64,000 nucleotides of DNA from a bacterium. GTDB lineage: Bacteria > Desulfobacterota > DSWW01. The stretch is taken from NCBI GenBank assembly GCA_015486285.1, contig WFRX01000140.1, forward strand, positions 1,621 to 65,620, in the 5' to 3' direction. The translations under genes were made by a program, and so were the position numbers. The notes below the pieces were generated by a model. The model made no database searches. It saw nothing but the letters and a program-made list of their open reading frames with translations, and was not told the DNA's origin. Within the stretch, counting starts at the first letter, position 1, and each line of letters begins with the position of its first letter. Below are positions 3,345-63,182 of the stretch, piece after piece.

Positions 3345-3409
3345 CACCCTGCCGGCGGGGTCGACGGCCGTCCCCGATTCCGCCGGCAGATATATACGAT
3401 ATTTTGTGT

Positions 3410-3427
3410 TCTCCTCCAAAATAATGG
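3410..3427 (+). promoter_or_regulatory. Putative activator site (imperfect palindrome CTCCAAAATAATGGATG) about 100 bp upstream of a sigma-54-type promoter
   Basis: Shares the CTCCAAAAT half-site with the perfect palindrome at 12902-12917, at the same distance from a near-identical promoter. Confidence 0.4.
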
Positions 3428-3524
3428 ATGTATTCTGGCCAGGCATATCTGAAATCTCCTCCCGCCGATTCGAGAAAAAACAGATCTTCCAGTCCCTTAC
3501 CGTCTCCTTGCCTTTGCGCGCCCT

Positions 3525-3540
3525 CTGGTATGAATCTTGA
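3525..3540 (+). promoter_or_regulatory. Sigma-54-type promoter candidate (CTCTGGTATGAATCTTGATAA; GG-N10-TTGA)
   Basis: -24 TGG and -12 TTG correctly spaced, -12 C replaced by A. 19 of 22 positions identical to the promoter at 13011-13032. Lies 45 bp upstream of the ABM gene. Confidence 0.45.
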
Positions 3541-3582
3541 TAATGCCCTGTCCCATGGGTCGGGAATGAAAGGGGCGCTGCG

Positions 3583-3966
3583 ATGATGGTACTGGCACTC
3601 CGCATGCGCGTGCAGCAGGGAAAGCGTGACGATCTGCTCCAAGTGGTGCGGCGCATGCTGGAACCGGACAGGCTGGCAAAGGGCTGCTTGAGCTACCACT
3701 TCTACCAGGACATTGAAGACCGTAATGCCTTCGTTTTCGTGGAGGAATGGGAGTCGCGGACGGATCTCGAGGACTACATCCGCACGGAGAGCTTCAGAAG
3801 GCTCCTGGCCGTGATGGATGTTTTGCGAGAGGCCCCGAAGCTCGATATCTACAAGGTATCCGAGACGGTCGGGATGGATTTCGTCGAGGCCGTGCTCGAA
3901 GATACGGCGGCAGGCAGGGGGACATTGCCGATTGAACCGACGACACAAGGGGGGCGCCGCGCATGA
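3583..3966 (+). CDS. ABM (antibiotic-biosynthesis-monooxygenase / Dabb-fold) domain protein
   Basis: LSYHFYQDIEDRNAFVFVEEWESRTDLEDYIRTESFRRLL resembles ABM/YgiN-like proteins. Its stop overlaps the next start (ATGA at 3963). Confidence 0.5.
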   Translation: MMVLALRMRVQQGKRDDLLQVVRRMLEPDRLAKGCLSYHFYQDIEDRNAFVFVEEWESRTDLEDYIRTESFRRLLAVMDVLREAPKLDIYKVSETVGMDFVEAVLEDTAAGRGTLPIEPTTQGGRRA

Positions 3967-5627
3967 GGATCAGGCTCAGAAGATGGGTGTTATGGCTGCT
4001 TGGGATCATTTTTCCCTGTCTCTTGTTCTCCCCGTTCCAGCGGGAAGCGGGGGCATTCTTCATCGATGACAAGGGCACGCTGCAGGTTTCGGCCAAGGTA
4101 CAGACCCGGGCGAGTTTTCGGCTCCAGGACGCGGACGGCTTTACCTCTCCGGACACGAAGGCGGGCGACCTGGTCCAATGGCGCAACCTGGGCCTCATCG
4201 AGATCAATCACGATCTGAGAGAGCTTACGAAGACGCTGGACATCCTTTGGCCGCTGAAAAAACTGGAGATTGACGCCCGCTACCATCTGGTGGGCCGGTT
4301 CATGTACGATGCCGTCTACGATATCGGCAGCGGCGGCTTCGGCGACGTCAAAGACGCGGATCCCGACAACATCGACAAATTCAAGCAGTCTTACGACCTG
4401 TGGGAATGCTATGCCGATTTTGTCCGAGGTCGCTGGTTTTTCCGCCTGGGCCGACAGAATCTCGCCTGGGGTGAAACCGACATCTTCCGCCTTCTCGACG
4501 GGATCAACCCGCTGGACAACACCTTCGGCGGCCCTTTCGAGGACCTGGACGACCGTCGGATTCCCCTCTGGATGCTGAAGGGTTCCTTCGATGTGGGGGA
4601 CGTAGGACCCTTTTCTTCCGTGGCGCTGGAAGGATTCTGGGTCCCCGGGTTCTGGGACGCCCGGGTAGCCCCTTTCGCGCCCCCGGGCACGCCTTACGCC
4701 GTGCCCTTGCCCGAGCTGTTCGTTCCCGCGCTTCGTATCGATACGCCGGACAAGAAGGGGTCCAACAGCAGGTGGGGGGTGCGCCTCTCAGGGATGGCGG
4801 GGCCCAACCTGAACTGGTCCATAGCCCATTACAAGACCTTCCTGGACCAGCCGGCCCTGCGGGCGGTGGTGGACCAGGGCCAGCTCACAGAAGTGGGGGG
4901 CGAAAAGCTGCTCACAAGCCTGGACGCCCTCACCCTGGAAGGCTCCTTCCCGAGCGTGCAGGTCACGGGCGCGAGCATGAGCTATTTTGACGCGGTGACC
5001 AACACGGTGTTTCGAGGGGAAGTCGCCTGGTTCTGGGACGAACCCGTCTTCATCCCGCAGGAGAATATGTCGCTTTTCTGGGGGCCTACCGTACCCTTGC
5101 CGCCCCCGGTGCTGGATCTGGCCGCCGAGTTGCTCGGGGTGGACATCCGGGATCTGGGCCTGGACGGGCTGCCCCTGAACCCGCAAAGCGGCCGGATCCC
5201 CGAGAAGGACATCCTGCGGTTCATGATCGGGCTGGACAAGCAAATCTGGATCCGGCCCTTGAACAAGGCGAGCATGTTTTTCCTGTCCATGCAGTACTTC
5301 GGCCAGTGGATTTCCGACTACGACGGTCGGATGGCACAGGCCGCCCCGATCTACCCGGATTATGTCGTGTTTCCCAAGGTGAAAGAGTACGAGAACACCA
5401 TCACCGCCATTGTGAACACGTATTACATGCAGGGAAATCTCGTGCCCCAACTGGCCGTGGCCTATGACCCGCGGGGAGCCTGGCTTGTGATGCCCCAGGT
5501 GAATGTCATCCACGGCCCGTGGCGGTTCATGGTTCAGTACAGCGCCATCGCAGGAAACTTCACCAACTTCGGCGTCCTGCGGGACCGAGACCAGATCAGC
5601 TTCATCCTGACGTACCTGCTGAGCTAG
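3963..5627 (+). CDS. DUF1302-family outer-membrane protein
   Basis: 554 aa with a signal-peptide-like N-terminus, an aromatic-rich beta-barrel-like sequence, and a DUF1329 partner immediately downstream. Confidence 0.6.
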   Translation: MRIRLRRWVLWLLGIIFPCLLFSPFQREAGAFFIDDKGTLQVSAKVQTRASFRLQDADGFTSPDTKAGDLVQWRNLGLIEINHDLRELTKTLDILWPLKKLEIDARYHLVGRFMYDAVYDIGSGGFGDVKDADPDNIDKFKQSYDLWECYADFVRGRWFFRLGRQNLAWGETDIFRLLDGINPLDNTFGGPFEDLDDRRIPLWMLKGSFDVGDVGPFSSVALEGFWVPGFWDARVAPFAPPGTPYAVPLPELFVPALRIDTPDKKGSNSRWGVRLSGMAGPNLNWSIAHYKTFLDQPALRAVVDQGQLTEVGGEKLLTSLDALTLEGSFPSVQVTGASMSYFDAVTNTVFRGEVAWFWDEPVFIPQENMSLFWGPTVPLPPPVLDLAAELLGVDIRDLGLDGLPLNPQSGRIPEKDILRFMIGLDKQIWIRPLNKASMFFLSMQYFGQWISDYDGRMAQAAPIYPDYVVFPKVKEYENTITAIVNTYYMQGNLVPQLAVAYDPRGAWLVMPQVNVIHGPWRFMVQYSAIAGNFTNFGVLRDRDQISFILTYLLS

Positions 5628-5682
5628 CCCGGCGGCGTACAAGGGAACGGAAATGACCCTGAAAATCCATCAGGAGGGAATC

Positions 5683-6996
5683 ATGAGGTTCGGAACGTAT
5701 GGGATCCGGTTTCTTGCATGCCTTTGCGCGCTCTTGTGTCTGGCCGCCTCCGCTTCCGCCGACGTGGCGCCGGGCGACACTGTGGACAAGACGAACTGGG
5801 AGAAGGTCCAGGGGATGGTGCCGGAGCCGGTCCTCAACTACGTGAAGAAAGGGGACCTGACCATCCATGTGGTCAATCTGGAATACGACCCCGCGGACTA
5901 CATGAGCATCTACGCCAAAGAATCCTTGGAGCCGAACAGGGGCAAATATGATCTGAACGACGACGGGATCGTCGTGGACGTCCAGAGCAGGAAGCTCCCG
6001 GATTTCATCGGGGGCATTCCCTTTCCGGAGATCGACCTGAACGATCCGAAGGCAGGGGCCAAGATCGTGACCAACCACTTCTACCAGACCTTTTCCCAGG
6101 GGAATGTAAAAATCCGAGACCAATTCCGCTGGATCGGCCGCGGCGGGCTGGAGCGGGTGGTCGAATCCAATTTCTGGCAGTATCCCATGGACGGCTATCC
6201 TCCCCGGAAGGCGGCGAAAAACAAGAACAAGGTGGAGCGGTATTCGATCATTCAGATCTTGGCCCCTTACGACATTGCAGGCACGAACATTCTGCTCTGG
6301 CGGTATCGTGACGCTCGTCCGGACAGCACCTTCGGGTACATCCCGGCCATTCGGAGGGTGCGCCGTATGAGCCCGTCGAACCGCTCCGATGCGTTCATCG
6401 GGTCCGACCTCTGTGTGGATGACGCCTGGACCTTCGACGGCAAGGTGTCCTCCTTCACGTGGAAGCTGGTGGGAAAGAAAGAAGGCCTGATCCCGTACGT
6501 GTTCAAGAAGGCCCAGCCGATTGTCAAGATCAGCGACGAAGCCGTTCAAACCACGAGACAAACCCATCGTTTGCAAATGAACTACGACGTGAAAGACGCG
6601 CAGAATGCACCCTGGTTTCCCTCGGAGAAGAACCCGCTGGCCTGGGTGAAACGGCCGGTGTATGTCGTCGAATTGACGGCCAAGGACCCCTACTACAATT
6701 ACGGGAAGATGTTTCTTTGGCTGGATGCGGGGAATCCCACCGCCGCCGTGTTCAAGACGATCTATGACCGTGCCGGCAAGTACTGGAAAAACGTATGGAT
6801 GGCCTGGACCGCCCTCGCAACGGAAGACAAGAGCGTGAAGTTGCTGGTTCCCGCGTACATGCTTGCTGCGGATGATCGCACGGACCATGCCACGATGCTC
6901 CAGGGTTTGTGCGAAGACTTCATCTATACCTACTTTGACGACTCCCAGACTGAAAGGGACTATTCCCTGGCCGGATTCCAGCGTCTGTCGAAATAG
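5683..6996 (+). CDS. DUF1329-family (LolA-like) outer-membrane/periplasmic protein
   Basis: Signal peptide MRFGTYGIRFLACLCALLCLAASASA; family resemblance and the usual pairing with DUF1302. Start at the internal ATG 5683 with a CAGGAGGG SD (the ORF track starts at 5653). Confidence 0.6.
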   Translation: MRFGTYGIRFLACLCALLCLAASASADVAPGDTVDKTNWEKVQGMVPEPVLNYVKKGDLTIHVVNLEYDPADYMSIYAKESLEPNRGKYDLNDDGIVVDVQSRKLPDFIGGIPFPEIDLNDPKAGAKIVTNHFYQTFSQGNVKIRDQFRWIGRGGLERVVESNFWQYPMDGYPPRKAAKNKNKVERYSIIQILAPYDIAGTNILLWRYRDARPDSTFGYIPAIRRVRRMSPSNRSDAFIGSDLCVDDAWTFDGKVSSFTWKLVGKKEGLIPYVFKKAQPIVKISDEAVQTTRQTHRLQMNYDVKDAQNAPWFPSEKNPLAWVKRPVYVVELTAKDPYYNYGKMFLWLDAGNPTAAVFKTIYDRAGKYWKNVWMAWTALATEDKSVKLLVPAYMLAADDRTDHATMLQGLCEDFIYTYFDDSQTERDYSLAGFQRLSK

Positions 6997-7023
6997 ATGG
7001 GAACCCGCGGAGGGGGCCAAGAC

Positions 7024-7368
7024 ATGGCTACCGTACGGATCGCGCCTGGAAACTGTAATTTTGAAACGCGGGTTTCCGTCGCGAAGATCGATAAACGGAG
7101 CTACAAGGTCGAGATCGAGAGCGCGTGCGAGCAGGTGAGCAGGCTGGGCGAAGGGATCCGCGAGTTGACGCTTCGCGATGTGCTTTGCCCCCCTTCGCTC
7201 TCCCCTTTGCTGGAGAAGGCGGGTGAGTGCAGGTTGCACGCCTCTTGTCCGGTTCCGGTGGGGATCCTCAAGGCCATGGAAGTGGAGGCCGGCCTCGCTT
7301 TGCCCATGGATGTCGTTATCCGGTTCGAGCGGTCCGCCGGGAAAGACGATCCCCCAAAAAAGAGCTGA
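7024..7368 (+). CDS. Small (114 aa) Cys-containing hypothetical protein immediately upstream of RACo
   Basis: ORF 6997..7368 has protein-like composition (MATVRIAPGNCNFETRVSVAKIDKRSYKVEIESACEQ...) and a GGAGGGGG SD 8 nt before the ATG at 7024. Confidence 0.45.
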   Translation: MATVRIAPGNCNFETRVSVAKIDKRSYKVEIESACEQVSRLGEGIRELTLRDVLCPPSLSPLLEKAGECRLHASCPVPVGILKAMEVEAGLALPMDVVIRFERSAGKDDPPKKS

Positions 7369-7399
7369 TCCGGAGCTGTGGAATAGAAGGAGGCGGAGC

Positions 7400-9358
7400 G
7401 TGGCGCACGACAAAGGAGAGGCAACCGTCATCTTTCAGCCTTCCGGCCGTAGAGGCCGGGTGGAGAAAGGAAAGAACCTCAAGGAGATCTCCGTCGGCCT
7501 CGGCGTGGACATCGAAGGGCTTTGCGGCGAGCAGGGGGTCTGCGGCAAGTGCAAGGTTCGCGTGGAGCAGGGATTCTTCGAGAAGTACGGGATCCAATCC
7601 GGCCCGGAGGCCCTCTCTCCCCTCACGGACACCGAGAGAGAGGCCCTGACGGCGCGCGAGTGCGAGCAGGGTTTCCGGCTGGCCTGTGTGGCCCAGGTCC
7701 TGGGCGACGTGGTGGTGTTCGTGCCGGAGGAGAGCCGCCTGGGCAAACAGGTGGTCCGCAAGGCGGGCCGGAAGCTGGACATCGCCCTCGACCCTGCTCT
7801 TCGGAAGTACACGGTGGAACTGCCCAAGGCGACCCTGGAGGACACGCTGGGCGACTGGGAGAGGCTGCAGGCGGCACTGCGGAAGACGCACGGCCTCGAT
7901 GGCGTAACGATCGACTACACTGCCCTCACCAGCCTGCAGGGCGCCATCCGGGAGGGCGACTGGCGGGCCACGGCCACGGTCTGGAGGGACCGGGAAGTCA
8001 TCCGGGTGACTCCCGGGGGGGAGGAGAAGGCCTACGGCGTGGCTGTCGATATCGGTACGACCACGGTCGCCGCCTATCTGTGCGATCTGTCGACCGGGGA
8101 GTTGACGGTTACCTCTTCCGCGATGAACCCCCAGGTGTCGTACGGCGAAGACGTGATGTCCCGCATCAGTTACACCCTCACCAACCCGGAGGGACTCGCG
8201 CAACTCAACCGGGCGATCATCCAGGGCCTGAACAGCCTGCTCGAGGAGCTGGCGGGGGAGGGCGGCATCCGCGCGGAAGACATCGAAGACCTGGTTGTCG
8301 TGGGCAACACCTGCATGCATCACCTCCTGCTGGGAATCGATCCCCGCTATATCGGCAAGGCGCCGTTTCCGCCGGCGCTGCACCACTCCATCGACTTGAA
8401 GGCGCGCGATCTCGGCTTGAAGATATGCCCCGGCGCCTATCTGCACGTCCTTCCGATCGAAGCGGGATTCGTCGGCGCGGACAATGTGGGCGTGCTCATC
8501 GCAGAGACGCCTTACGAGGAGGAGCAGGTCCGTCTCATCATCGACATCGGCACGAACGGAGAATTGATCCTGGGCAACCGGGAAAAGCTGGTCTCCTCCT
8601 CCTGTGCCACGGGGCCCGCCTTCGAGGGCGCCGAGATCAAGTACGGGATGCGGGCGGCTCCGGGCGCCATCGAGAAGATCGTAATCGACCGGGAGACCAA
8701 GGAGGTCCGCTTCCGGGTCATCGACAACGAAGCGTGGAACGATGAGGCGGACCATATCGGCGCCAAGGGGATCTGCGGCTCGGGCATCATCGATGCGGTC
8801 CCTCAGCTCTTCCTGGCCGGGATCATCGACCGCACGGGACGGTTCTCCAAGGACCTGGACACGCCCCGGTATCGCGTTACCGAGGAGGGCCCCGCCTTCG
8901 TCATCGCCTGGGCCCGGGAGACATCCATCGGCCAGGACATCGTGATCACCCAGGACGACATCCGGGCGATCCAGCTGGCCAAGGGCGCCATGTACGCAGG
9001 TGCGGTCATCATGATGCGGGCCTTCGGGGTCGAAAGGGTGGACGAAGTCATTCTGGCCGGCGCCTTCGGCAGCTACATCGACAGGGAATCGGCGGCCCTG
9101 CTGGGCCTGTTTCCGGACTGCCCCCTGGAGAAAATCCGTTCCGTGGGCAATGCCGCCGGCGACGGCGCGCGCATGGCGCTCCTGAACGTCGGGAAAAGGG
9201 CCGAGGCGGATGAATGGGCCAGACAGGTGGAATACCTCGAGCTGACCCTGGAAGCGGATTTCGAAAAACGCTTTACCCAGGCCATGTGGATTCCCCACAT
9301 GAAGGACAAGTTCCCCTCCTTGGAGCACCTGCTGCCCGGCAAGGGGAGAGGCAAGTAG
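7400..9358 (+). CDS. RACo-type reductive activator of corrinoid proteins (N-terminal 2Fe-2S ferredoxin + ASKHA/DUF4445 ATPase domain)
   Basis: CGEQGVCGKCKV...C ferredoxin motif, then ASKHA-like VDIGTTTVAAY..., IDIGTNGEL..., GSGIIDA motifs. GTG start at 7400 preceded by an AGGAGG SD; the ORF-track N-terminal extension is ignored. Confidence 0.8.
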   Translation: MAHDKGEATVIFQPSGRRGRVEKGKNLKEISVGLGVDIEGLCGEQGVCGKCKVRVEQGFFEKYGIQSGPEALSPLTDTEREALTARECEQGFRLACVAQVLGDVVVFVPEESRLGKQVVRKAGRKLDIALDPALRKYTVELPKATLEDTLGDWERLQAALRKTHGLDGVTIDYTALTSLQGAIREGDWRATATVWRDREVIRVTPGGEEKAYGVAVDIGTTTVAAYLCDLSTGELTVTSSAMNPQVSYGEDVMSRISYTLTNPEGLAQLNRAIIQGLNSLLEELAGEGGIRAEDIEDLVVVGNTCMHHLLLGIDPRYIGKAPFPPALHHSIDLKARDLGLKICPGAYLHVLPIEAGFVGADNVGVLIAETPYEEEQVRLIIDIGTNGELILGNREKLVSSSCATGPAFEGAEIKYGMRAAPGAIEKIVIDRETKEVRFRVIDNEAWNDEADHIGAKGICGSGIIDAVPQLFLAGIIDRTGRFSKDLDTPRYRVTEEGPAFVIAWARETSIGQDIVITQDDIRAIQLAKGAMYAGAVIMMRAFGVERVDEVILAGAFGSYIDRESAALLGLFPDCPLEKIRSVGNAAGDGARMALLNVGKRAEADEWARQVEYLELTLEADFEKRFTQAMWIPHMKDKFPSLEHLLPGKGRGK

Positions 9359-9423
9359 CAGCCGGGTATGCCCAACGGCTGGAAAGTAGACCGACATGAT
9401 CAGGATGAACTGCTTTCTTCGCC

Positions 9424-9460
9424 GACTTCCCAAAAAGTCCCATTTGCGGCGTTCGGCTTC
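9424..9460 (+). repeat. Copy 1 of a short intergenic repeat family (CCCAAAAAGTCCCATTTGCGGCGTTCGGCTTCATCC)
   Basis: Related copies at 18430-18463 and 24263-24296. Confidence 0.5.
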
Positions 9461-9737
9461 ATCCGTCGTCATTCAACGTACGGGAGGTACGCTTCACCGT
9501 TACATGGATCCCCTTATCCTGCGGAATTGTCGCCTGCGTTGCACCCGGAACTTTTTGAACAGCCTCCAAGAGCCACCTTGTGAACAGGCTCTCAGGCAGG
9601 TCCGGGGGGCCGCGCCCCGTGCTGATGACAACGGCACATGGATATGCCAGACTGCAAGGAGGTCGGGTTTGTAGGTTTGTATCGGTCGTCCGGCACGAAG
9701 GCGGCCTGCGACACCGGAAGACGAAAGCGCCACGGCC

Positions 9738-11333
9738 ATGGATGAGAACGCCGGTCACCTGCTCGAGGAACGACTGCGTTTCGAGCAATTGCTTTCCAAT
9801 CTTTCCGCGAAATTCGTCAACCTCCCTGCACATCGGGTGGACGCAGAGATCTCGAGCGGACTCCAGGAAATCGCGGTTTTTCTCAACGTAGACCGGGCTA
9901 TCTTGTGGGAGCGATCTCCTGAGGATGGACGCTTCCGTCCCATTCATTGGTGGGCCATACCGGGGGTTGATACGTTTCTTCCCGGTACAACGGAAGAAAA
10001 CTTCCCGTGGATTCTCGAACGTGTTTATCGAGGTGAGGCCACGATCATTACCCGGGTGGAAGACTTCCCGGCAGAGGCGGAAAAAGAGAGGCGTTGGGTG
10101 GAGGGGACAGGTGTGAAGTCGGGCATCGTGGTGCCGCTCATGGTAGAGGGATCCGTGGTCTCCCTGCTGGCGCTGCACGTCCATCGGAGCGGGCGGCACT
10201 GGACCCCTGAAATCGTACAGCGACTGCGCATGTTCGGGGAGGTGCTTCTCAACGCCCGGGAACGCAAGCGGGGAGAAGAAAGGCTCCGGCAGGCCTTCTC
10301 CGAGATCGAGCGGCTGAAACATCAGCTCGAGGTGGAAAACCGTTACCTCCGCGAAGAAATCGACCTCACCCACGAGCACAAGGAAATCGTCGGCAAGAGC
10401 CGGGCCATCCGGAGGGTCTTGCGCTCCGTGGAAAGGGTGGCCGGTACGGAATCCACGGTTCTCATCCTCGGTGAGACCGGCGCCGGGAAGGAAATGATCG
10501 CCTTTGCGATTCACAACATGAGTCCCAGAAGAGGCAGGCCTCTCGTAAAGGTGAATTGCGGCTCTTTGCCCACTACCTTGGTGGAGAGCGAACTGTTCGG
10601 CAGAGAAAAGGGGGCGTTCACGGGCGCCGTTTCGAGACAAACGGGGCGGTTCGAGGTCGCGGACGGCTCGTCGATTTTTCTCGACGAGATCGGGGAAATG
10701 CCCCTCGAGGCACAGACCAAGCTCCTGCGGGTGATCGAGGATGGTGAATTCGAGCGTTTGGGCAGCACGAAGACCATCAAAGTGGATGTCCGCGTCATCG
10801 CCTCCACGAACCGGGACCTGCTCCAGGCGGTTCGGAAAGGCGTCTTTCGGGAGGACCTCTATTATCGTTTGAATGTCTTCCCCATTGTCGTCCCCCCTCT
10901 TCGGGAACGCAGGGAAGACATCCCCCGGCTGGTGTGGCACTTCGTGAGAAGTTACGAGAAGAAAATGGGGAAGTCTATCGAGAAGATCCCGGAGAAAGAT
11001 ATGCAGGCCCTGCAAAGGCATGACTGGCCGGGCAACGTCCGGGAGCTGAAGAACGTGGTGGAACGGGCGATGATCCTGAACCGGGGGCCCATCTTCCGGT
11101 TGGAAATGGATGAGGCCAGAGCCCACACGGGGGGCCTGGGGAGAACCCTCCGGGAGATCGAGAAGCGGCACATCATGGACGTGTTGGTGGAGACCGGTTG
11201 GCGGGTGAGGGGCAAAGGCGGCGCGGCGGAGATTCTGGGCCTCAAGCCTACGACCCTGGAAGCCAGGATGCAGAAGCTCGGCATCCGGAGAAAGCGCGAA
11301 TCCTTGTCTTCCGCTGTGGAGACGCCCCGGTGA
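9738..11333 (+). CDS. Sigma-54-dependent transcriptional activator (GAF sensor domain + AAA+ sigma-54 interaction domain + Fis-type HTH)
   Basis: GAFTGA motif ([10 protein letters not shown]), Walker A GETGAGKE, the ESELFG motif, and a C-terminal HTH ([21 protein letters not shown]). Confidence 0.9.
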
Positions 11334-11429
11334 GGCCCCGGAAGCCAGGGGACAAGGCCCGCCAAAGCACTTGAGAGGGAGTCGAGTCCGGTCCGGAAGA
11401 CAGAAGGGCACTCAATAGGGGGAAAAGAG

Positions 11430-12779
11430 ATGGGCACACAGCCGACGAAAACCTTGCAAGCGGATGTGGTGATTGCAGGGTCCGGGCCGGGCGGGGCCAC
11501 CGTGGCCCGGGAGCTTTCCCGAAAGGGCAAGCGGGTGATCGTGTGCGAGGCGGGAAAGTACAGCAAGTGGCTCGGACACACCCTTTCCACCTTTTTCATG
11601 CTGGATCGGAAGGGGTTGAGCTTTTCCGAACAGGGGCAGTGGATCGTCTCGGGCCGGACGGCCGGCGGAGGCACGGTCGTCTATGGCGGTATGGCCTGGA
11701 AGCCTCCTGCCTGGTTCAAGGAGAAGTACGGCATCGACCTCTCCGCGGAGACCGATGAGTTCTACCAGGAGGTTTCAGCCGGTCCCCTGCCGGATTCACA
11801 CATCGGTCCCGCGTCCCGGAGGATCATGGAGGCGGCCCGCAAGACGGGCCTTGACTGGAAGCCGGCCGACCGCTTGATCCGTGCGGACAAGTGTAAGCCC
11901 GACTGTGATGCGTGTATGTCCGGATGTACGCGGGGCGCCAAGTGGACGGCCCGCGAGTTCCTGGACGAGGCCGTCGGCAACGGCGCGACCCTCCTGCTGC
12001 AAACAGAGGTGGAGCGGGTTCTGACAGAGTCCGGCGAGGCGATCGGTGTGCGGGCAATGGGGCCCGAGGGGCCGGTGGAGATCCTGGCGGATACGGTGGT
12101 CGTCTCGGCGGGCGGGTTCGGAACGCCCCGCATTCTGCAGAGGTCCGGGCTCTACGAGGCCGGCCGGGGATTTGCCGTCGATTTCGGGCGCTACGTGGGC
12201 GGTCTCTGTCCCGACCACACCCCGCGGACCGAGGTTCCCGCAACGACGGGTGTCGAGCTGTCCAAGGAAGGCATCATCCTGCTTGCAGGCACGCTCAAGG
12301 GGATCATGTACGGAGGGATGCTCGCCATTACCGGGCCCCGGGCCTGGGGCCGGTTGCCCGACGCTTTCCGGGCCGGGAAGGCCCTGGGAATCCTGATGAT
12401 GGTCCGAGACCGGGTCGAGGGGAGGATCAACCCGGAGGGCACCTTTTCCAAGCCGATCGACGAGGATTGCCGGGCCAAGCTCAACCAGGGGACCCTGATC
12501 GCCCAGGAGGTGCTCGAGGAGGCCGGCGTGAGGCGCAAGCAACAGACGGCCATGACCGTTTTCGCCGCCCACCAGGTGGCTTCCGTTCGAATCGGGGAGT
12601 TGCTGGACCAGAACTGCCAGACACCCATCAAGCGATGCTACTGCATGGATGCCAGCGTGATCCCCGAGGACTGGGGCCAGCCGCCCGTGGTCACCATCGT
12701 CGCCCTGGCCAAGAGGCTCGCCAAACATCTTGCCGTGGCCGTTGAGACGGAAGTCGCCGTACAAGAACCTGCTTCCTGA
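11430..12779 (+). CDS. GMC-family FAD-dependent oxidoreductase (short form)
   Basis: N-terminal Rossmann ADVVIAGSGPGGATVAREL and a GMC-like C-terminal region. Confidence 0.65.
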   Translation: MGTQPTKTLQADVVIAGSGPGGATVARELSRKGKRVIVCEAGKYSKWLGHTLSTFFMLDRKGLSFSEQGQWIVSGRTAGGGTVVYGGMAWKPPAWFKEKYGIDLSAETDEFYQEVSAGPLPDSHIGPASRRIMEAARKTGLDWKPADRLIRADKCKPDCDACMSGCTRGAKWTAREFLDEAVGNGATLLLQTEVERVLTESGEAIGVRAMGPEGPVEILADTVVVSAGGFGTPRILQRSGLYEAGRGFAVDFGRYVGGLCPDHTPRTEVPATTGVELSKEGIILLAGTLKGIMYGGMLAITGPRAWGRLPDAFRAGKALGILMMVRDRVEGRINPEGTFSKPIDEDCRAKLNQGTLIAQEVLEEAGVRRKQQTAMTVFAAHQVASVRIGELLDQNCQTPIKRCYCMDASVIPEDWGQPPVVTIVALAKRLAKHLAVAVETEVAVQEPAS

Positions 12780-12901
12780 GGAATCCCCGGCGGGTCATTT
12801 CCGTGAGCCTGCAGAGGGGGTTTGCGTGTCATGTTGGCTTCTTTTTCAAGCCATAGCGGGGACGGGTGTGTGGCGCGGGAACTCCAAGATGTTGGGACGG
12901 G

Positions 12902-12917
12902 CTCCAAAATTTTGGAG
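12902..12917 (+). promoter_or_regulatory. Perfect 16-bp palindrome CTCCAAAATTTTGGAG; putative sigma-54 activator site (UAS)
   Basis: Read directly. Lies about 100 bp upstream of the TGGCAC promoter. Confidence 0.5.
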
Positions 12918-13010
12918 GCCGTGCTTCCTTCCTGATCATCCCTTGCCGCGGGGGGCTGAAAAATACCGTATTGTTTTCGGCAGGTTAGGTCTTCATCCGC
13001 CTTGTCGCTT

Positions 13011-13032
13011 CTCTGGCACGACTCTTGAGAAG
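13011..13032 (+). promoter_or_regulatory. Sigma-54 promoter candidate (CTCTGGCACGACTCTTGAGAAGG; TGGCACG-N4-TTGA)
   Basis: -24 TGGCACG is perfect; -12 is TTGA instead of TTGC. Sits 90-110 bp upstream of the first methyltransferase gene; a sigma-54 activator gene is adjacent. Confidence 0.55.
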
Positions 13033-13120
13033 GAAGAATGGCCGGCAGCCGACCTTGTCCCGTTTCGGATGGAGCGGGAAGGTCGGGAATGAAACGGACT
13101 TTCATGGGGAGGGCTTACGG

Positions 13121-14203
13121 ATGGTCAGTTCAAGAGGGGGCATGAGTGAACTGGAACGGCTGGAGGCGCTGTTGAACCGGGAGCGGCCGGACCGGGTACC
13201 TATCTGGCCTCTATCCGCAGGATTCAGCATGCTGAACGGAGGGTATACGATCAATGACGTCTACACCGACGTCAGGATCTGCACGGATGCGCAGATTTGG
13301 GCCAACGAACAGTACGGCTGGGCCCCTGTCGTGCTCATTCCGGGCGCCCTTTCGGCATGGCCCGCCCTGGAATTCGGCGGGGACGTCAAGTTCCCCACCG
13401 GAGACTTTTCCCAGGCCCCGACGGTTGTGCGGCATCCGGTTCAGAGCGACGAGGAGATCCTCAACCTGAAGATTCCGGATCCCCTGGAAAATGCGGGCAC
13501 CATCCCCATGCAGCTTGCCGCGGTAGCCTATGCGCTGGAGCGCCAGCCAAGGGGTCTGCTGGTGGGCCTTCTTGTAGGCGGGCCCATGGAGATCGGCAGG
13601 GCGCTCGTCAGCATCGAGATGTTGGGCCGGATGATGTACAAAAAGCCGGACATGGTGCACAAGCTTTTCCGGTTTGCCACCGACTTCTCGATCGCCGTGG
13701 CCAAGCTGTGGACCGAGAAGTTCGACCCGGCGAGGATCTGCCCCTTCGTCGGAGGGCCCACCCACTCGAACCAGGTCATCTCGCCGAAGCATTTCAAGGA
13801 ATTTTGCCTCCCCTACGTCAAGGAAACGCATGCGGCCCTGCGGGAATTGGGCTACAAGCATTTCATGTTTCATCCCTGCGGGGAGCAGAACGAGAACCTC
13901 CCCTACTGGGCCGAGGCGGAGATGGGCGACCCCGGGATCATCAGCGTGGGGCACGAGATCGACCTGAGCAAGGTGGCCGAGTACTTCCCGGATCACATCG
14001 CCTTCGGGAACCTGGAGCCGGCCATCGTACAGACCCACAAGCCTCCCGAGGTCTACGAGGCGGTCCGGGATCTGGTGGCCAGGCACAAGGACATTCCCGG
14101 CGGCTACATCTTTTCGGTGGGCTGCGAGCTGCCGCCGAAGGCCTCGCCGGGCAGTGTCTGGGCCATGACCAAGGCGGTGGAAGATGCCGGCTGGTATACG
14201 TGA
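13121..14203 (+). CDS. Uroporphyrinogen-decarboxylase (URO-D/MtaA) family methyltransferase (corrinoid-dependent MT, copy 1)
   Basis: MtaA/CmuA-like TIM-barrel sequence (RVPIWP..., HPCGEQNENLPYW). Start at ATG 13121 with a GGGGAGGG SD; ATG 13142 is the alternative. Confidence 0.75.
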   Translation: MVSSRGGMSELERLEALLNRERPDRVPIWPLSAGFSMLNGGYTINDVYTDVRICTDAQIWANEQYGWAPVVLIPGALSAWPALEFGGDVKFPTGDFSQAPTVVRHPVQSDEEILNLKIPDPLENAGTIPMQLAAVAYALERQPRGLLVGLLVGGPMEIGRALVSIEMLGRMMYKKPDMVHKLFRFATDFSIAVAKLWTEKFDPARICPFVGGPTHSNQVISPKHFKEFCLPYVKETHAALRELGYKHFMFHPCGEQNENLPYWAEAEMGDPGIISVGHEIDLSKVAEYFPDHIAFGNLEPAIVQTHKPPEVYEAVRDLVARHKDIPGGYIFSVGCELPPKASPGSVWAMTKAVEDAGWYT

Positions 14204-14274: not shown

Positions 14275-14964
14275 ATGGCGAGCGAGGAGCGAACCAGGGA
14301 GATCCTGGAGGCACTGAAGGACTCGGTCAAGGATTTCGAGGAGGAAGAGGCGGTCAAGTGGGCCAAGATCGCGCTGGAAGAAGGAGTGGATCCCTTTCAG
14401 GCGACCATGGAGGGGCTGGCGGAAGGCATGATCATCGCGGGCGATCTTTACAACCAGAAGGAGTACTTCGTGCCGGAGCTGCTCATGTGCTCCGATGCCC
14501 TGTACGCGGGGCTGGAGGTGCTCAAGCCGGCCATCGAGGCCTCGGACCGGCAATCGGAGGTAAAGGGTTCGATTGTCGTGGGGGTGGTGGAAGGGGATGT
14601 GCATGACATCGGCAAGAATCTGGTGAAGATCATGTTCGAGGTGGCGGGCTGGACGGTGCACGATCTCGGCAAGGACGTGCCCCTGGAGAAGTTCGTGGAA
14701 GAGCAGATCCGGACCGACTGCGATGTGGTGGGGCTCTCCGCGCTGATGACCACCAGCATGCTGGGTATGCCGGAGGTGATCCGGAAGCTCAGGGAGAAGA
14801 ACCCGAAGGTGCGGATCCTGATCGGGGGCGCCCCGATCAACCCGGAGGTGGCCGAGAAGTACGGGGCCGACGGCTACGCCAAGACGGCCGGGACGGCGGT
14901 GGATGAGGCGATCCGGCTGCTGAAGATGTTGCGGGACGAGGAACAGGGCAAGCAGGCGGTCTGA
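14275..14964 (+). CDS. Corrinoid (B12-binding) protein, MtaC/MtbC-like
   Basis: B12-binding DxHxxG motif (GDVHDIGKN), a helical cap domain and a Rossmann-like B12 domain; GAAGGAGA SD. Confidence 0.85.
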   Translation: MASEERTREILEALKDSVKDFEEEEAVKWAKIALEEGVDPFQATMEGLAEGMIIAGDLYNQKEYFVPELLMCSDALYAGLEVLKPAIEASDRQSEVKGSIVVGVVEGDVHDIGKNLVKIMFEVAGWTVHDLGKDVPLEKFVEEQIRTDCDVVGLSALMTTSMLGMPEVIRKLREKNPKVRILIGGAPINPEVAEKYGADGYAKTAGTAVDEAIRLLKMLRDEEQGKQAV

Positions 14965-14994
14965 CAGGGCACGAGCAGGAGGGAGGTGTTTTCG

Positions 14995-16020
14995 ATGAAT
15001 TCCAGGGAACGGGCCTTGAAGGTCTTCAAGCGCGAGCCGGTCGACCGCATACCGGTCTTCAGCGGCTACGGGAACATTACGCTGCACGGGCTTGAGCAAC
15101 ATGGCTGGAATTTCTGCGAGATCCACACGGACGCGGAGAAGATGGCGCGGGTGGCCGCCACGAGCTACGAACTCTTCGGGTTCGAGTGTGCGGTGGTGCC
15201 TTTCGACATGGGGGTGGAGGCCGAGGTCCTCGGCAGCAAGGTCAACTATTACCCGCACCGTACGGATGTGGTCTACCCGACGATCGAGCAGCCGGCCGCG
15301 GAAACGGTGGACGATCTCCGGGTGGAGATGCCCGCCGACCTGGCCCATGCGGGACGGGTTCCCGTGGTCCGGGAGGCATTGGGCAAATTGAAGGAGCGGT
15401 TGGGTGAGGATGTGGTGATCGGCGCCTGGGTGCTGGGTCCTTACACGCAGACCGGCCAACTGGTGGACCTTTCCAATCTCTCCCGGGCGGCCTACAAGAA
15501 GCAGGGGCTGATGAACGAGATCCTGGAGAAGGTCTCTACCTTCCTGATCGAAGTGATCCGGCTCTACCGGGAGGCCGGGGCGGACTACATCACGATCCGC
15601 GAGATGGGGGCGGGGCCGGACATCCTGAGCCCGGCCATCTTCCGGAAACTGGTCAAGCCCCACTTGGAGCGTATCTTCTCGGAGATCGACTCACCGAAGG
15701 TGCTGCACATGTGCGGCGACACGAACATGATCATCGAACTTCTGGGGGACTGCGGGGCGGACGCGGTGAGTGTGGAGAACAAGAACGACGTGGCCGCGTC
15801 CCGGGCGAAGCTGGGTCCGGATGCGCTGATCTTCGGCGACATCGACGCTTACAACGTGCTGGTCAACGGCACGCCGGAGCAGGTGGCGGAAGCGGTCAAG
15901 GCCGCGATCGACAAGAGCGTCAACGCCCTCTGGCCCAGTTGCGACATCTGGCCCACGGCCCCCCCGGAAAACATGCGGGCCCTTATGGAAGCCGCGAGGC
16001 AATATGGAAAACGCGGCTGA
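14995..16020 (+). CDS. URO-D/MtaA-family methyltransferase (copy 2)
   Basis: RIPVFSGYGNITLHGLEQHG..., HMCGDTNMIIELL. ATG 14995 is 9 nt after an AGGAGGGAGG SD. Confidence 0.75.
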   Translation: MNSRERALKVFKREPVDRIPVFSGYGNITLHGLEQHGWNFCEIHTDAEKMARVAATSYELFGFECAVVPFDMGVEAEVLGSKVNYYPHRTDVVYPTIEQPAAETVDDLRVEMPADLAHAGRVPVVREALGKLKERLGEDVVIGAWVLGPYTQTGQLVDLSNLSRAAYKKQGLMNEILEKVSTFLIEVIRLYREAGADYITIREMGAGPDILSPAIFRKLVKPHLERIFSEIDSPKVLHMCGDTNMIIELLGDCGADAVSVENKNDVAASRAKLGPDALIFGDIDAYNVLVNGTPEQVAEAVKAAIDKSVNALWPSCDIWPTAPPENMRALMEAARQYGKRG

Positions 16021-16093
16021 GCTTCTGTAAGGAGGGTCCGAGGATCTGGATGGGTTTGGTGTGGATCACTTGACCATTGCGAAGGAAAACCAA

Positions 16094-17035
16094 ATGCTTC
16101 GATACCCGAAAGTGCAGCAAGTGGCCGAGATCGGGGGTCTCCGGGTCGGCGGCCAGCCGGGCGAGAATCCTCCCCTCCTGGTGGGAAACATGTTCCAGAA
16201 GGGGGATGCCCTGTTGAAGAGCCGGAAACAGGGCGAGTTTGACAGGGCCCGGGCGGAAGAACGTATCCGGGAGCTGGAAAGCGTTTCCCGTGAGACGGGC
16301 ATACCCGGTATGGTGGCGCTGGTGGCGAACACGGAAGAAGAAATCAAGGGCTACATCGACTTTGTCACCGACGTGACGGACATGCCCTTTGCCGTGGACA
16401 TCTGGCAGCAGGATGTCCGGCTCGCCGCGGCGCGCTATGTGGCCGAGATGGGCATGCAGGACAGGGTCCTGTACAACAGCATCACGCCCTGGGACAAAGA
16501 CATCGCGTCCCAGGTGTCGGAACTCAAGGAACTGGGCATCCGGCATGTGGTGATCCAGGCCTTTGACACGAACGACAAGACCTCCTCGGGCAGACTCACC
16601 TCCCTGGAGGCCCTGCTGCCTTCGGCTCAGAAGGGCGGATTCGCGAGCATCCTGGTGGATACGGCCGCCATGAACCTGCCCGCCATGGGGCTGTCGCTGA
16701 AGGCCAATCATCTCATCAAGGAGCGGCTCGGCCTGCCCGTGGGGTTCGCCCCGTCCAACGGAAGCTACATGTGGCGGAAGTCCGCGGAAGGGGATGCGAA
16801 AAAGAGGTTTCCCGCCGTGGATGCGGCGGCGCATGCCGTCTGCGCGCTCCTGAGCGATTTCCTCTTCTACGGGCCCATGTCCGGGACGTCCCGGGTGTTC
16901 GCCGCCGTCGGGGCGGCAAGCGCCATGACGGCCGCGTTGGCCTACGAGGAGACGGGCGCCCTGCCGGCGGGCGCGCATCCGCTCGGCGAGATGTTTCCGG
17001 ACGTCCTCGAACAGTTCCGTCAGGACTCTGCCTGA
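16094..17035 (+). CDS. MtrH-family (pterin-binding) methyltransferase: methyl-corrinoid:tetrahydrofolate/pterin methyltransferase
   Basis: VAEIGGLRVGGQPGENPPLLVGNMF is a typical MtrH/MT-II N-terminus. ATG 16094 has a GAAGGA SD; the track's GTG at 16061 is the alternative. Confidence 0.75.
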   Translation: MLRYPKVQQVAEIGGLRVGGQPGENPPLLVGNMFQKGDALLKSRKQGEFDRARAEERIRELESVSRETGIPGMVALVANTEEEIKGYIDFVTDVTDMPFAVDIWQQDVRLAAARYVAEMGMQDRVLYNSITPWDKDIASQVSELKELGIRHVVIQAFDTNDKTSSGRLTSLEALLPSAQKGGFASILVDTAAMNLPAMGLSLKANHLIKERLGLPVGFAPSNGSYMWRKSAEGDAKKRFPAVDAAAHAVCALLSDFLFYGPMSGTSRVFAAVGAASAMTAALAYEETGALPAGAHPLGEMFPDVLEQFRQDSA

Positions 17036-17196
17036 GGAACGAAATGTTCCTGCGTATATGACGGGGCTTTGCGTGCGTGCGCGTGTTGCTCGAGGATTGC
17101 AACGCCTTCAGGATATGTGTTAAACGCATGCATGCCGCTCACATTCCGGCAGCGGTTTCAAAACATCCGGAAGAGAGACGAAGGAGGATGGATCCA

Positions 17197-18420
17197 ATGA
17201 GAGAGTTACCCCCCCGCATGCAGGATCGACTTTACCACGATATGATTCTTCCCGAGGAAACCCTGGAGATTCGGGCCAAGGCGAGGGAGTTCGCGATCCG
17301 GGAGATCGCCCCGCGGGCCTACGAGATCGCCCACACCGAGGAAAGCCGGGAGAGCTTCGCCTGGGACATCTTCCGAAAATTGGCGGAAGAGGACTTCTTC
17401 AAGATCCCCTACCCGGCCGAGGTGGGGGGGCTCGGCTTGAAATATCCGTGCTGTGCGACGGTTGTCACGGTCGAGGAACTCGCCTACATGTCGAACAGCA
17501 TTGCAGCCGTCTATGACGTGCACTGCATCCTGGCCGGCCACGCCCTGGAATACGGCTCGGAACACATCCGGGAAAACTTCCTCCGGCCCATGACCACGGC
17601 CGAAAAGATCGGCTGCTTTGCCACCACCGAACCGATGGCCAGTTCCGACCTCTCCGCCCGCTCGGTGCAGACTCGGGGCAGACGAGAGGGAGACGTGTTC
17701 ATCGTCAGCGGACAGAAGCGCTTCATCACGAATTCCTGTGTGGCCGATTTCGTCACCGCCCTGGTCAACGTCGAGGGCAAGCTCTGCATGATGGTCATCG
17801 ATCTCCACACCGACGGCTGCCGCGTGGGGGAGCCGGATCGCAAGATGGGGAACAAGGGGCAGCTCACCTCGGATATCTACTTCGACGAGGTCGCTGTTCC
17901 CGTGGAGAACCTCATCAGCGACATGGGCAAAGGCCTTCACGTGGCCCTGGGCACACTCACGTACGGCCGCGTCGGGATTGCCGCCACAGGCGTCGGCATG
18001 GCCCAGTCCGCCTTCGACGAGTCGGTGGCCTACATGAAGGAGCGGGAGGCCTTCGGCAGGAAGATCGGCCAATACCAGTACTGGCAGTTCCGTATTGCGG
18101 AGCGGGCGATTCAGATCGAGAACGCCCGGAATCTCTATCTCAAGGCCGCTCTCAGGATGGATCAGGGGGTCGAGTTCCCCGAGCCGGAGGCCGGCGGAGC
18201 CAAGTACTATGCCACCGAATGCGCCGGCGACATGGCCAGGGATGCGGTCCAGATCTTCGGCGGGTACGGATTCATGCAGGAGTTGAGCCACGACAAATCC
18301 CATTACAAGGTCCAGGAGATCTTCCGGGATTTCAAGATCGCCGAGATCTACGAAGGAACGAACGAGATTCAACGCATGATCCTCGCCCGCACGATCTTCG
18401 GCAAGGACTTGACAGGTTAG
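17197..18420 (+). CDS. Acyl-CoA dehydrogenase
   Basis: Full-length ACAD fold: FFKIPYPAEVGGLGL, TEPMASSDLS, QIFGGYGFMQELSHDKSHYKVQEIFRDFKIAEIYEGTNEIQRMI. ATG 17197 is 9 nt after an AGGAGG SD. Confidence 0.9.
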   Translation: MRELPPRMQDRLYHDMILPEETLEIRAKAREFAIREIAPRAYEIAHTEESRESFAWDIFRKLAEEDFFKIPYPAEVGGLGLKYPCCATVVTVEELAYMSNSIAAVYDVHCILAGHALEYGSEHIRENFLRPMTTAEKIGCFATTEPMASSDLSARSVQTRGRREGDVFIVSGQKRFITNSCVADFVTALVNVEGKLCMMVIDLHTDGCRVGEPDRKMGNKGQLTSDIYFDEVAVPVENLISDMGKGLHVALGTLTYGRVGIAATGVGMAQSAFDESVAYMKEREAFGRKIGQYQYWQFRIAERAIQIENARNLYLKAALRMDQGVEFPEPEAGGAKYYATECAGDMARDAVQIFGGYGFMQELSHDKSHYKVQEIFRDFKIAEIYEGTNEIQRMILARTIFGKDLTG

Positions 18421-52241: not shown

Positions 52242-52319
52242 TGGCGTCCCCAACCGGATTCGAACCGGTGTTGCCGCCGTGAAAGGGCGGTGTCCTTGGC
52301 CAGGCTAGACGATGGGGAC
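52242..52319 (-). tRNA. tRNA-Glu (anticodon UUC)
   Basis: Minus-strand sequence GTCCCCATCGTCTAGCCTGGCC...CCGCC-CTTTCAC-GGCGG...GGTTCGAATCCGGTTGGGGACGCCA; 7-bp acceptor stem, loop CUUUCAC. Confidence 0.85.
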
Positions 52320-52383
52320 GTCTGGTGACTGCGCTATACGAAAAAGATGGAGTGCTCGACCCCTGTTTTCCCTGAGGTCCGGC

Positions 52384-52459
52384 TGGTGGGCCGTGCTGGA
52401 CTCGAACCAGCGGCTCTCTGCTTAAAAGGCAGATACTCTACCGACTGAGTTAACGGCCC
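52384..52459 (-). tRNA. tRNA-Lys (anticodon UUU)
   Basis: GGGCCGTTAACTCAGTCGGTAGAG...TCTGC-CTTTTAA-GCAGA...GGTTCGAGTCCAGCACGGCCCACCA. Confidence 0.85.
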
Positions 52460-58303: not shown

Positions 58304-58393
58304 GGAGAGATGGCCGAGAGGTCGAAGGCGGCTGACTCGAAATCAGCTGTACCGCTTGCGGTACCGGGGGTTCGAATCCCTCTCTCTCCGCCA
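58304..58393 (+). tRNA. tRNA-Ser (anticodon CGA)
   Basis: GGAGAGATGGCCGAG...GCTGA-CTCGAAA-TCAGC, long variable arm, ...GGTTCGAATCCCTCTCTCTCCGCCA. Confidence 0.85.
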
Positions 58394-59323: not shown

Positions 59324-59719
59324 GGATTGAACTTTTTGCGGCCGCGGATGTCTCACTATTGCAAGATGCCGCAAAATCAGGTTTTTCCCTCTCCCTGCAC
59401 CGAACATCCTTGCTGAATCCATCGTGCTTTGTGTAGGGAGAGGGGATTCTTTCTCTACTTGAGACCTCCCGGCAGGACTTCCTCCACAGTCGCTCCCAGG
59501 TACATTTCCAGTCAGAATCCTGACGCGGGCCATACAAATTTGTAACCTCGATCGGAAACGGTGCCGCCGGAGAACTTCCGAGAGACCAAAAAACGTTTGA
59601 AAAACACAGGGATACATATTGGCCCTTCCCCGGGATGTCGAATCCTCCCCGTGGCATAGCCCTTGCACAAAAGGCAGGCGCAAGAAAGAACCCCCCAACG
59701 CCAGGTGAGGGCCCTCTAG

Positions 59720-63161: not shown

Positions 63162-63182
63162 CTCTCTTTGGTTTCAAGGAAA

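Follow-up and report, generated by a model that had tools for sequence, protein, structure and literature searches.

The nif system offers a described counterpart to the regulon discussed in this report. Its regulator, NifA, is a one-component protein made of a GAF domain, an AAA+ domain with the GAFTGA motif and a Fis-type helix-turn-helix (HTH), and it serves several operons through a palindromic enhancer located at least about 100 bp upstream, upstream activating sequences lying at 100-150 bp (PMC7057263). At nif promoters the upstream activator sequence reads TGT-N10-ACA, and looping is assisted by IHF. For NorR and norVW, two reports describe a GAF activator that depends on multiple adjacent enhancers upstream of a sigma-54 promoter (PMC2831303, PMC2941729); likewise, a study on anaerobic resorcinol degradation in Aromatoleum anaerobium describes two enhancer-binding proteins, RedR1 and RedR2, acting on several sigma-54 promoters (PMC10084136). 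We analyzed a stretch of 64,000 nucleotides, hereafter the window, of contig WFRX01000140.1 (assembly GCA_015486285.1, positions 1,621 to 65,620) from a bacterium of the Desulfobacterota. A first-pass annotation had pointed out in it two operons with similar sigma-54-type promoters and upstream palindromes, and had proposed that they form a regulon of a GAF-type sigma-54 activator encoded next to them. Comparative tests bear out this proposal: an outer-membrane operon and a B12-type methyl-transfer operon very probably share one on-switch, exerted by the activator encoded between them, and the regulon is one of a widespread, apparently undescribed family.

The activator of the window is a bona fide one-component GAF enhancer-binding protein (GAF at residues 42-169, Sigma54_activat at 217-383, AAA_lid_14, and HTH_8 at 470-514), with a match to PF00158 at E = 1.8e-69 and a GAFTGA motif encoded from position 10611; the window encodes no second protein of this kind. 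It falls in no named equivalog, its NCBIfam scores for FhlA, NifA and NorR all being below the cut-offs. NifA is among its best PDB and NCBIfam matches, but a score of 376 against 529 indicates that it is not a NifA; moreover, it has no NifL-like partner, its site is CTCCRAAATnTYGGAG, its promoters read TTGA at -12, its enhancer is an obligatory tandem pair of sites, spaced by 20 bp and held at a constant distance of 114 +/- 2 bp, and its cargo is catabolic or methyl-transferring. NorR senses nitric oxide and uses three sites of different sequence, whereas the window has two 16-bp palindromes and a NorR score of 335, below the cut-off of 476. The best NCBIfam match is FhlA (394 bits), restricted to the AAA+ and HTH part (residues 186-519 only) and far below the cut-off of 830, and no hyc, hyp or fdhF genes lie nearby. 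The Joint Genome Institute labels the orthologues 'formate hydrogenlyase transcriptional activator', which is a generic COG name and not a function.

The RedR system, likened here by description only, has two near-identical regulators and different cargo (PMC10084136). As for gene content, O-demethylase, Mto and Mtv-type corrinoid systems (PMC8630106) have the same component set as the cargo of the window, but in the window the first methyltransferase is highly diverged and the set is coupled to DUF1302 and DUF1329 proteins, a GMC oxidoreductase and an acyl-CoA dehydrogenase. In the searchable literature, whose coverage is incomplete, no account was found in which corrinoid demethylase-type systems are under sigma-54 control, and no description of the site motif in a relevant context or of an ABM protein paired with an enhancer-binding protein; a paper on the mlp gene cluster (PMC10418091) proved unrelated, and a transcriptome study of Rhodopirellula, the one paper to mention sulfatases together with sigma-54 and enhancer-binding proteins, was not taken as relevant. 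The architecture is that of classic NifA and NorR systems, and what is specific to the present one is the site sequence, the obligatory tandem pair at 114 bp, ABM as first gene, the cargo and GA at -12.

Tandem sites, promoters and their conservation

At each enhancer two 16-bp palindromes stand in tandem, the second starting exactly 20 bp after the first (3394-3429 and 12882-12917; Table 1), a pairing that the first-pass annotation had missed and that puts both sites on about the same face of the helix. From the centre of the pair to the T of the promoter TGG, the distance is 114.5 bp both at P1, which precedes the ABM gene, and at P2, which precedes the first methyltransferase gene, well within the range of roughly 80-150 bp upstream in which an enhancer is looked for. 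The family consensus of the site is CTCCGAAATnTCGGAG, and its type in this genome is CTCCAAAATTTTGGAG, which stands at 12902-12917 as the perfect 16-mer reported earlier. The P1 palindrome CTCCAAAATAATGGATG is also present, starting at 3414 and not at 3411. Amended to tandem pairs, the claim that palindromes about 100 bp upstream are enhancer sites agrees with the comparative tests.

Both sigma-54-type promoter strings are present with the GG-N10 spacing claimed for them. The 22-mer of P2, CTCTGGCACGACTCTTGAGAAG, lies exactly where it had been placed (13011-13032), that of P1 lies at 3522-3543, one base away from the 3521-3542 given earlier, and the two sequences aligned in register are identical at 17/21 positions, where 19/22 had been announced. 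The sigma-54 consensus is TGGCAC-N5-TTGC, and natural promoters deviating from it at -12 are on record (PMC12316311). The -24 element is TGGCACG in P2 and TGGTATG in P1, with the invariant GG in both, and GG-N10-GA spacing is common to P1, P2 and all 15 orthologous promoters. At -12, both P1 and P2 depart from TTGC and read TTGA, the C of the consensus being replaced by A. We read TTGA as a variant of the -12 element and not as a ground for exclusion, and sigma-54 function is predicted for both promoters, the rarity of GA at -12 having been judged from the published consensus (PMC12316311) and our own comparison set. By the -24/-12 rule, transcription would start at about 3552 (P1) and 13040 (P2).

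Taken singly, the elements are close to what chance would deliver in 64 kb: 2 perfect 16-bp palindromes were found against 1.2 expected, which is not significant, and 20 TGG-N8-TTGM strings against 15, which is no enrichment. A chance resemblance of the two regions would account for such counts. However, the combination of elements is far beyond chance, because the window has the 12-mer family core nowhere but at the P2 pair (2 copies against 0.19 expected), because a scan of the 64 kb for tandem sites picked only two places (2 and 7 mismatches of 28, the next best, with 9, being at chance level), and because the arrangement recurs in every orthologous locus. With the tandem arrangement at these two places only, an identical 114.5-bp offset, and an arrangement shared with the 10 distinct orthologous loci as well as with dozens of remoter loci, the comparative data refute a chance match for practical purposes and leave it next to no probability. 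The same scan returned nothing above chance that could indicate a third regulated promoter in the window.

A protein search gave the orthologous activators P0002-P0011, 68-73% identical to that of the window; the loci of eight were fetched, and L187 and L192 were added from a metagenome scan, making 10 distinct syntenic loci (L083, L084, L085=L086=L087=L187, L088, L089, L090/L091, L092, L093, L094 and L192). The exact activator sequence also occurs in a fragmented metagenome-assembled genome (MAG; GCA_027077695.1), and the nearest named homologues come from MAGs labelled Thermodesulfobacteriota or Deltaproteobacteria. Gene order in the orthologues is ABM, (DUF1302, DUF1329), RACo, activator, methyltransferase, corrinoid protein, methyltransferase, (flavin reductase), MtrH, GMC. 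In every locus covering the regions concerned, TGGCA(C/T)-N5-TTGA is found about 57-60 bp before ABM (before RACo in L088) and again about 100 bp before the first methyltransferase, the -24 element being TGGCAC everywhere except at P1 of L083 (TGGCAT). In 15/15 P1 and P2 regions measured, a tandem pair is centred 113.5-115.5 bp from TGG, with site starts 20 bp apart (19 bp once). The fraction of the majority base is 0.93-0.97 in the promoter and 0.81-0.88 in the enhancer, against 0.64-0.72 in the DNA between them, and in the intergenic alignments the columns that never vary fall on the promoter and on the two copies of the site core, CC.A.AT.T.GG. Promoter and site pair are thus conserved as islands in diverged DNA, a phylogenetic footprint with a fixed-distance constraint; by this comparison, the promoter, the site pair and the distance between them are under selection.

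A consensus scan for sigma-70 promoters, a crude tool, found none in the two intergenic regions. Over the whole window, Rfam matched only tRNAs and signal recognition particle (SRP) RNA and no RNA family in the leaders, and RNAalifold gave no convincing conserved fold of the leaders (-4.9 kcal/mol). The crudeness of the sigma-70 scan, the loss of a C that belongs to the consensus (PMC12316311) and the additional deviation of the window's P1 at -24 would all suit a view in which TTGA makes poor or non-functional sigma-54 promoters, the operons being served by other, unrecognised promoters or by read-through. Against this, TTGA is kept in 17/17 distinct promoters of the clade while the flanking DNA drifts, which argues for selection and not for decay; in the wider family, the homologous promoters, equally far from these sites, have the canonical TTGC; and the -24 element and spacing of P2 are near-perfect. 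We give little credence to non-functional TTGA promoters and keep to predicted sigma-54 control, the function of TTGA remaining the main experimental uncertainty.

Elsewhere in the window, at 59652-59666 (+), TGGCATAGCCCTTGCA looks like a canonical sigma-54-type promoter; it is intergenic and 54 bp before a PKD/TSP3-repeat gene (59720-61600). This single example suggests that the organism also uses ordinary TTGC promoters, so that TTGA seems to go with the regulon rather than with the organism as a whole. An antisense sigma-54-like string, TGGCATCGCTCTTGCC, found in activator genes was rejected as a promoter, as it is the reverse complement of conserved GKSDA codons.

A further conserved block, between the enhancer and P2, was considered as IHF-like and dropped: what the orthologues have there is a strong terminator-like hairpin, GCAACTTGGGA...TCCCGAGTTGC, that includes a U-run and ends directly at the TGG of P2 (z = -2.9 to -6.6), so that a terminator for the activator gene would sit between the enhancer and P2. 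The window, with the GMC gene moved in upstream, shows only a decayed form of this hairpin (z = -0.24). Locus L085 has, at 11567-11602, a tandem pair right after the activator stop and no sigma-54 promoter, an SDR gene beginning 22 bp past the end of the pair; this pair could be what is left of a P2 that disappeared, or it could serve otherwise.

Covariation of recognition helix and half-sites

The half-sites are CCGA...TCGG in all orthologues and CCAA...TTGG in 7/8 half-sites of the window. Over the recognition helix, the proteins differ only once: KPTTLESRM in the orthologues, KPTTLEARM (Ala509) in the window. The third helix of the HTH is the recognition helix in NtrC/Fis-type domains (PMC11407668). 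Metagenome contigs were scanned for the tandem core with either base allowed, which yielded at least 120 loci, and the helix was read for every activator gene adjoining a site pair. Among the loci listed, Ala at helix position 7 goes with mostly A at half-site position 5 in 4/4 cases (the window, L124, L132 and L143), and Ser with mostly G in 21/21 (Fisher p = 8e-5 for the contrast). A second position behaves in the same manner: Ser at helix position 3 goes with C at half-site position 2 (CCCCGA) in 5/5 loci, C being found in 1/17 loci with Thr (p = 2e-4). Gln in place of Glu at helix position 6 accompanies A or G at half-site position 2. The four Ala lineages do not group together in a neighbour-joining tree: each branches off separately, with Ser relatives next to it.

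Because the pattern by which loci were collected left the protein unconstrained, the comparison of helices is unbiased and the covariation is independent evidence that this activator family reads the palindromes with its third HTH helix. As computational evidence it is strong, and it agrees with the earlier proposal that the adjacent GAF activator is the regulator binding the palindromes, as we predict it to be. The Ser/Ala rule is not general: it fails for a second activator of L083, with the helix KRTTLQAKM, an exception which limits the rule to the CTCC/Glu508 class.

The same covariation bears on the idea that the sigma-54 promoters are real but that a different protein binds the palindromes, or that these serve as RNA hairpins or terminators, the activator acting elsewhere. 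That the orthologous P2 pair begins a few bases from the activator stop, a position also typical of terminators, and that the L085 pair has no promoter behind it are in keeping with this idea. It does not foresee, however, that a helix of the activator co-varies with the half-site at two positions, nor that P1, in surroundings of quite another kind, is preceded by the same pair; the AT-rich stems lack a U-run, while the orthologues have a separate strong terminator-like hairpin downstream; and the distance to the promoter is fixed within 1-2 bp, which a terminator would not need. We therefore hold another binder or a terminator to be very improbable, and binding of the pairs by the activator itself remains the preferred reading.

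Genes of the two operons

Pfam and NCBIfam confirm the gene content that had been described for both operons, the small Cys protein of the first being DUF6951 (Table 1). The corrinoid protein, the methyl-corrinoid:pterin and substrate methyltransferases and the reductive activase all have clear Pfam domains, and the component set is complete; orthologues of the corrinoid protein have B12-binding domains. Three gene starts (RACo, corrinoid protein, first methyltransferase) were refined from ribosome-binding sites and orthologue lengths: RACo starts at GTG 7400 behind GAAGGAGG, which gives 652 aa, equal to the orthologues, and the first methyltransferase, by alignment, at ATG 13121 behind GGGGAGGG, which gives 360 aa as in the orthologues. 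In NCBIfam, RACo is AcsV-like, with 478 bits below a cut-off of 800. The second operon is as had been stated but probably longer: judging by gene spacing, it would run on through the acyl-CoA dehydrogenase and DUF1254/DUF1214 genes to about 19578, after which comes a convergent iron-type alcohol dehydrogenase gene.

Table 1. Features of the two operons, their control regions and equivalents in orthologous loci
Feature	Position	Strand	Details
P1 enhancer, distal site ATACGATATTTTGTGT	3394-3409	.	inner 10-mer CGATATTTTG fits family core; flanks degenerate
P1 enhancer, proximal site CTCCAAAATAATGGAT	3414-3429	.	imperfect palindrome; homologous to second site of every orthologous P1
P1, sigma-54-type promoter TGGTATGAATCTTGA	3526-3540	+	GG 3527-3528, GA 3539-3540
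ABM-domain protein	3583-3966	+	PF03992, E = 3.7e-16; first gene of operon 1
DUF1302 protein	3963-5627	+	PF06980, E = 1.4e-31; start overlaps ABM stop by 4 nt
DUF1329 / LolA-like protein	5653-6996	+	PF07044, E = 1.4e-40
DUF6951 small protein	6997-7368	+	PF22263, E = 1.6e-26
RACo-type reductive activator of corrinoid proteins	7400-9358	+	Pfam RACo_C_ter, Raco_middle, RACo_linker, Fer2
Conserved block ATGACA-N17-CAGACT upstream of activator	9625-9653	+	only conserved part of RACo-activator spacer
GAF / AAA+ (GAFTGA) / Fis-type HTH enhancer-binding protein	9738-11333	+	Pfam; PDB homologues NtrC1, NifA, FleQ
Antisense TGGCATCGCTCTTGCC string	window 10393-10407; L083 9605, L084 10670, L088 8852	-	rejected as promoter
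GMC-family FAD oxidoreductase	11430-12779	+	Pfam; 96 bp after activator gene
GMC gene in orthologues	L083 15361-16707, L084 17341-18687, L090 from 14254; also in L091		
P2 enhancer, distal site CTCCAAGATGTTGGGA	12882-12897	.	
P2 enhancer, proximal site CTCCAAAATTTTGGAG	12902-12917	.	perfect 16-bp palindrome
Terminator-like hairpin	L089 6314-6343, L088 9846-9873, L093 4591-4618, L083 10599-10626; window equivalent ~12978-13007		
P2, sigma-54-type promoter TGGCACGACTCTTGA	13014-13028	+	GG 13015-13016, GA 13027-13028
Diverged URO-D/MtaA-family methyltransferase	13121-14203	+	PF01208; NCBIfam below cut-offs; PDB 4ay7 E = 6.7e-9
Corrinoid (B12-binding) protein	14276-14964	+	TIGR02370, 192 bits vs cut-off 215; start refined to ATG 14276
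MtaA-like methylcobamide methyltransferase	14986-16020	+	NF004889, 265 bits vs cut-off 244; PDB 4ay7 E = 6e-50
MtrH-family methyltransferase, corrinoid <-> pterin	16061-17035	+	NF002142, 331 bits vs cut-off 287; PF02007
Acyl-CoA dehydrogenase	17077-18420	+	Pfam; 41 bp after MtrH gene
DUF1254/DUF1214 protein	18487-19578	+	Pfam; 66-bp gap before

The place of the outer-membrane genes varies: DUF1302 and DUF1329 lie behind P1 in the window, L083, L084, L085 and L092; in L088-L091 they close the P2 operon. In every case they are inside the predicted regulon although the operon changes, which supports the earlier suggestion that the outer-membrane proteins and the methyltransferase system are co-induced. 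The activator gene does sit between the two promoters, as had been noted; directly upstream of P2, however, is the GMC gene and not the activator. In most orthologues extending far enough, GMC is at the far end of the second operon, and its position in the window reflects a local rearrangement by which the gene has left the predicted sigma-54 unit.

Ahead of the activator gene, the block ATGACA-N17-CAGACT, with invariant GACA and A..CT columns in an alignment of 8 otherwise diverged loci, is probably the activator's own weak sigma-70-type promoter, although it falls below the threshold of the consensus scanner. The spacer between RACo and activator is 380 bp long (9359-9737) and has about 250 extra bases (9359-9600) compared to the orthologues, encoding nothing recognisable. 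In long contigs of the European Nucleotide Archive, genes are split or fused (L084 4465-5676 and 13097-13714; L083 3772-6613), for example into an ABM-DUF1302 fusion or a truncated methyltransferase, probably as a result of assembly frameshift errors. Rfam also places four tRNA genes and the large SRP RNA towards the far end (52245-52459, 58304-58390 and 63067-63457); they are unrelated to the system.

A wider family and the proposed mechanism

Among the at least 120 metagenome loci, 61 carry CTCC/CCCC-type (class I) pairs. A TGG-N8-TTGN string lies 80-150 bp from the pair centre in 38 of the 61 class I loci listed, and in 32 of these 38 at 114-118 bp, a distance for which the chance expectation is about 3% per locus; 15 soil loci among those listed have such strings at 114-118 bp on each side, that is, divergent promoters. 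An ABM homologue is found within 700 bp of the pair in 27/61 class I loci listed, and in 17/36 of those flanked on each side by 500 bp or more. Outside the window's clade these homologues are 25-36% identical to the ABM of the window, and the ABM proteins of the module form a coherent subfamily with the pattern G-C...Y.D...EEWES, whose gene comes first after promoters of this type in many unrelated loci. In the loci listed, the activator gene often ends just before the site pair. Cargo differs by branch: sulfatases, formylglycine-generating enzyme (FGE) and an HdeA-like protein in L104 and L202, SDR and EthD in L085, and the corrinoid system in the window. Credible module promoters (114-118 bp) outside the window's clade are canonical TTGC in all cases listed, which, with TTGA in 17/17 inside it, makes TTGA at -12 a trait of this clade.

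Several variants were seen. In L104 (2812-2847), L202 (5137-5172) and about 13 similar soil loci, one CTCCGAAATTTCGGAG pair serves divergent promoters TGGCCCGnTTCTTGC at 114-118 bp on each side, with ABM, HdeA-like and sulfatase genes in one direction and sulfatase, FGE and HAD genes in the other. The second activator of L083 (17893-19800) is called as 391 aa without a GAF domain, its HTH helix lying just past the called stop, and its gene may be frameshifted; it is followed by palindromes TGCCGAAATAACAGCT and TGCCTATATATGGGCA, a promoter CGGCACGCATTTGGCA 117 bp on and a second ABM gene, so that the same module is present in another flavour within one genome. A second palindrome family, TGCCGAnATnTCGGCA, with 20-bp spacing and sometimes in threes, is found near activators with the helix KRTTFYSKM (for example in L126, L140, L145, L180 and L153); most of its loci have no TGG-N8-TTG string within 150 bp by the pattern used. 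A scan of a genome collection with the activator was swamped by generic AAA+ motifs and gave only one loosely related locus, L003, from a Desulfobulbus MAG, where a longer, 54%-identical activator is followed by inverted CAATATATTG cores at 17 bp (2345-2395) and then by an ABM gene; no clear promoter was recognised after these cores.

We consider it highly probable that the region is a small sigma-54 regulon in which the adjacent activator, acting on paired sites, drives both operons. The activator would bind both tandem pairs, each 114.5 bp upstream of TGGYAY-N5-TTGA, with P1 heading ABM, DUF1302, DUF1329, DUF6951 and RACo, and P2 heading the diverged MtaA-like, corrinoid, MtaA-like and MtrH-like genes, probably followed by the acyl-CoA dehydrogenase and DUF1254/DUF1214. 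A small molecule sensed by the GAF domain would free the AAA+ domain, the activator would oligomerise on the paired sites, the DNA would loop, and GAFTGA loops would touch the sigma-54 holoenzyme at -24/-12, where ATP hydrolysis would open the promoter. The ligand, assembly, looping and opening steps are carried over from the established sigma-54 mechanism (PMC7057263), and the rigid distance of 114 +/- 2 bp argues for a phasing constraint. With the activator gene probably on its own weak constitutive promoter, uptake and outer-membrane components, the corrinoid reactivase and the methyl-transfer enzymes would be switched on together.

Several points weigh against such a regulon. The argument is built throughout on sequence comparison; the neighbour-joining tree is crude, and the loci were chosen by site pattern, so that the true extent of the family is sampled unevenly. 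The -12 TTGA lacks the consensus C, and sigma-54 function is assumed from homology to the TTGC promoters of the wider family. P1 of the window is the weakest of its class: its -24 element is TGGTAT, and of its two sites one is degenerate and the other imperfect. Between enhancer and promoter, IHF-like matches are weak (1-2 mismatches to WATCAANNNNTTR), recurring at -39/-40 in P1 and at -50 in P2, and no RpoN-box protein is encoded within the 64-kb window.

A bolder proposal, which we find rather unlikely, is that ABM belongs to the sensing circuit instead of being a cargo enzyme, and that the clade-wide change from GC to GA at -12 of both promoters is a selected tuning of basal versus induced output and no mere drift. 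ABM might then make, destroy or present the GAF ligand, which would explain why it is kept while the cargo is swapped. It is similarly doubtful that the cassette has four fixed parts, namely the GAF activator, the tandem CTCCGAAATnTCGGAG pair, the sigma-54 promoter at 114-118 bp and ABM as invariable first gene.

The promoters and the regulon are ordinary biology and leave the understanding of sigma-54 control unchanged. What is transferable is a search rule: two 16-bp palindromes 20 bp apart with a promoter at 114 +/- 2 bp, or, as a pattern, CTCCRANATNTYGGAG-N4-CTCCRANATNTYGGAG followed by TGGCAC-N5-TTGM at 112-118 bp, which should find the regulons of many uncharacterised GAF activators in sediment and soil bacteria. 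The covariation further offers a testable two-position code for a Fis-type HTH, in which Ser or Ala at position 7 would read G or A, and Thr or Ser at position 3 would read T or C, while the -12 GA promoters form a natural series on the contribution of the -12 C to sigma-54 promoters. Finally, the DUF1302 and DUF1329 proteins, the RACo activase and a corrinoid methyl-transfer system are joined here in one predicted induction unit, which gives them a functional context.

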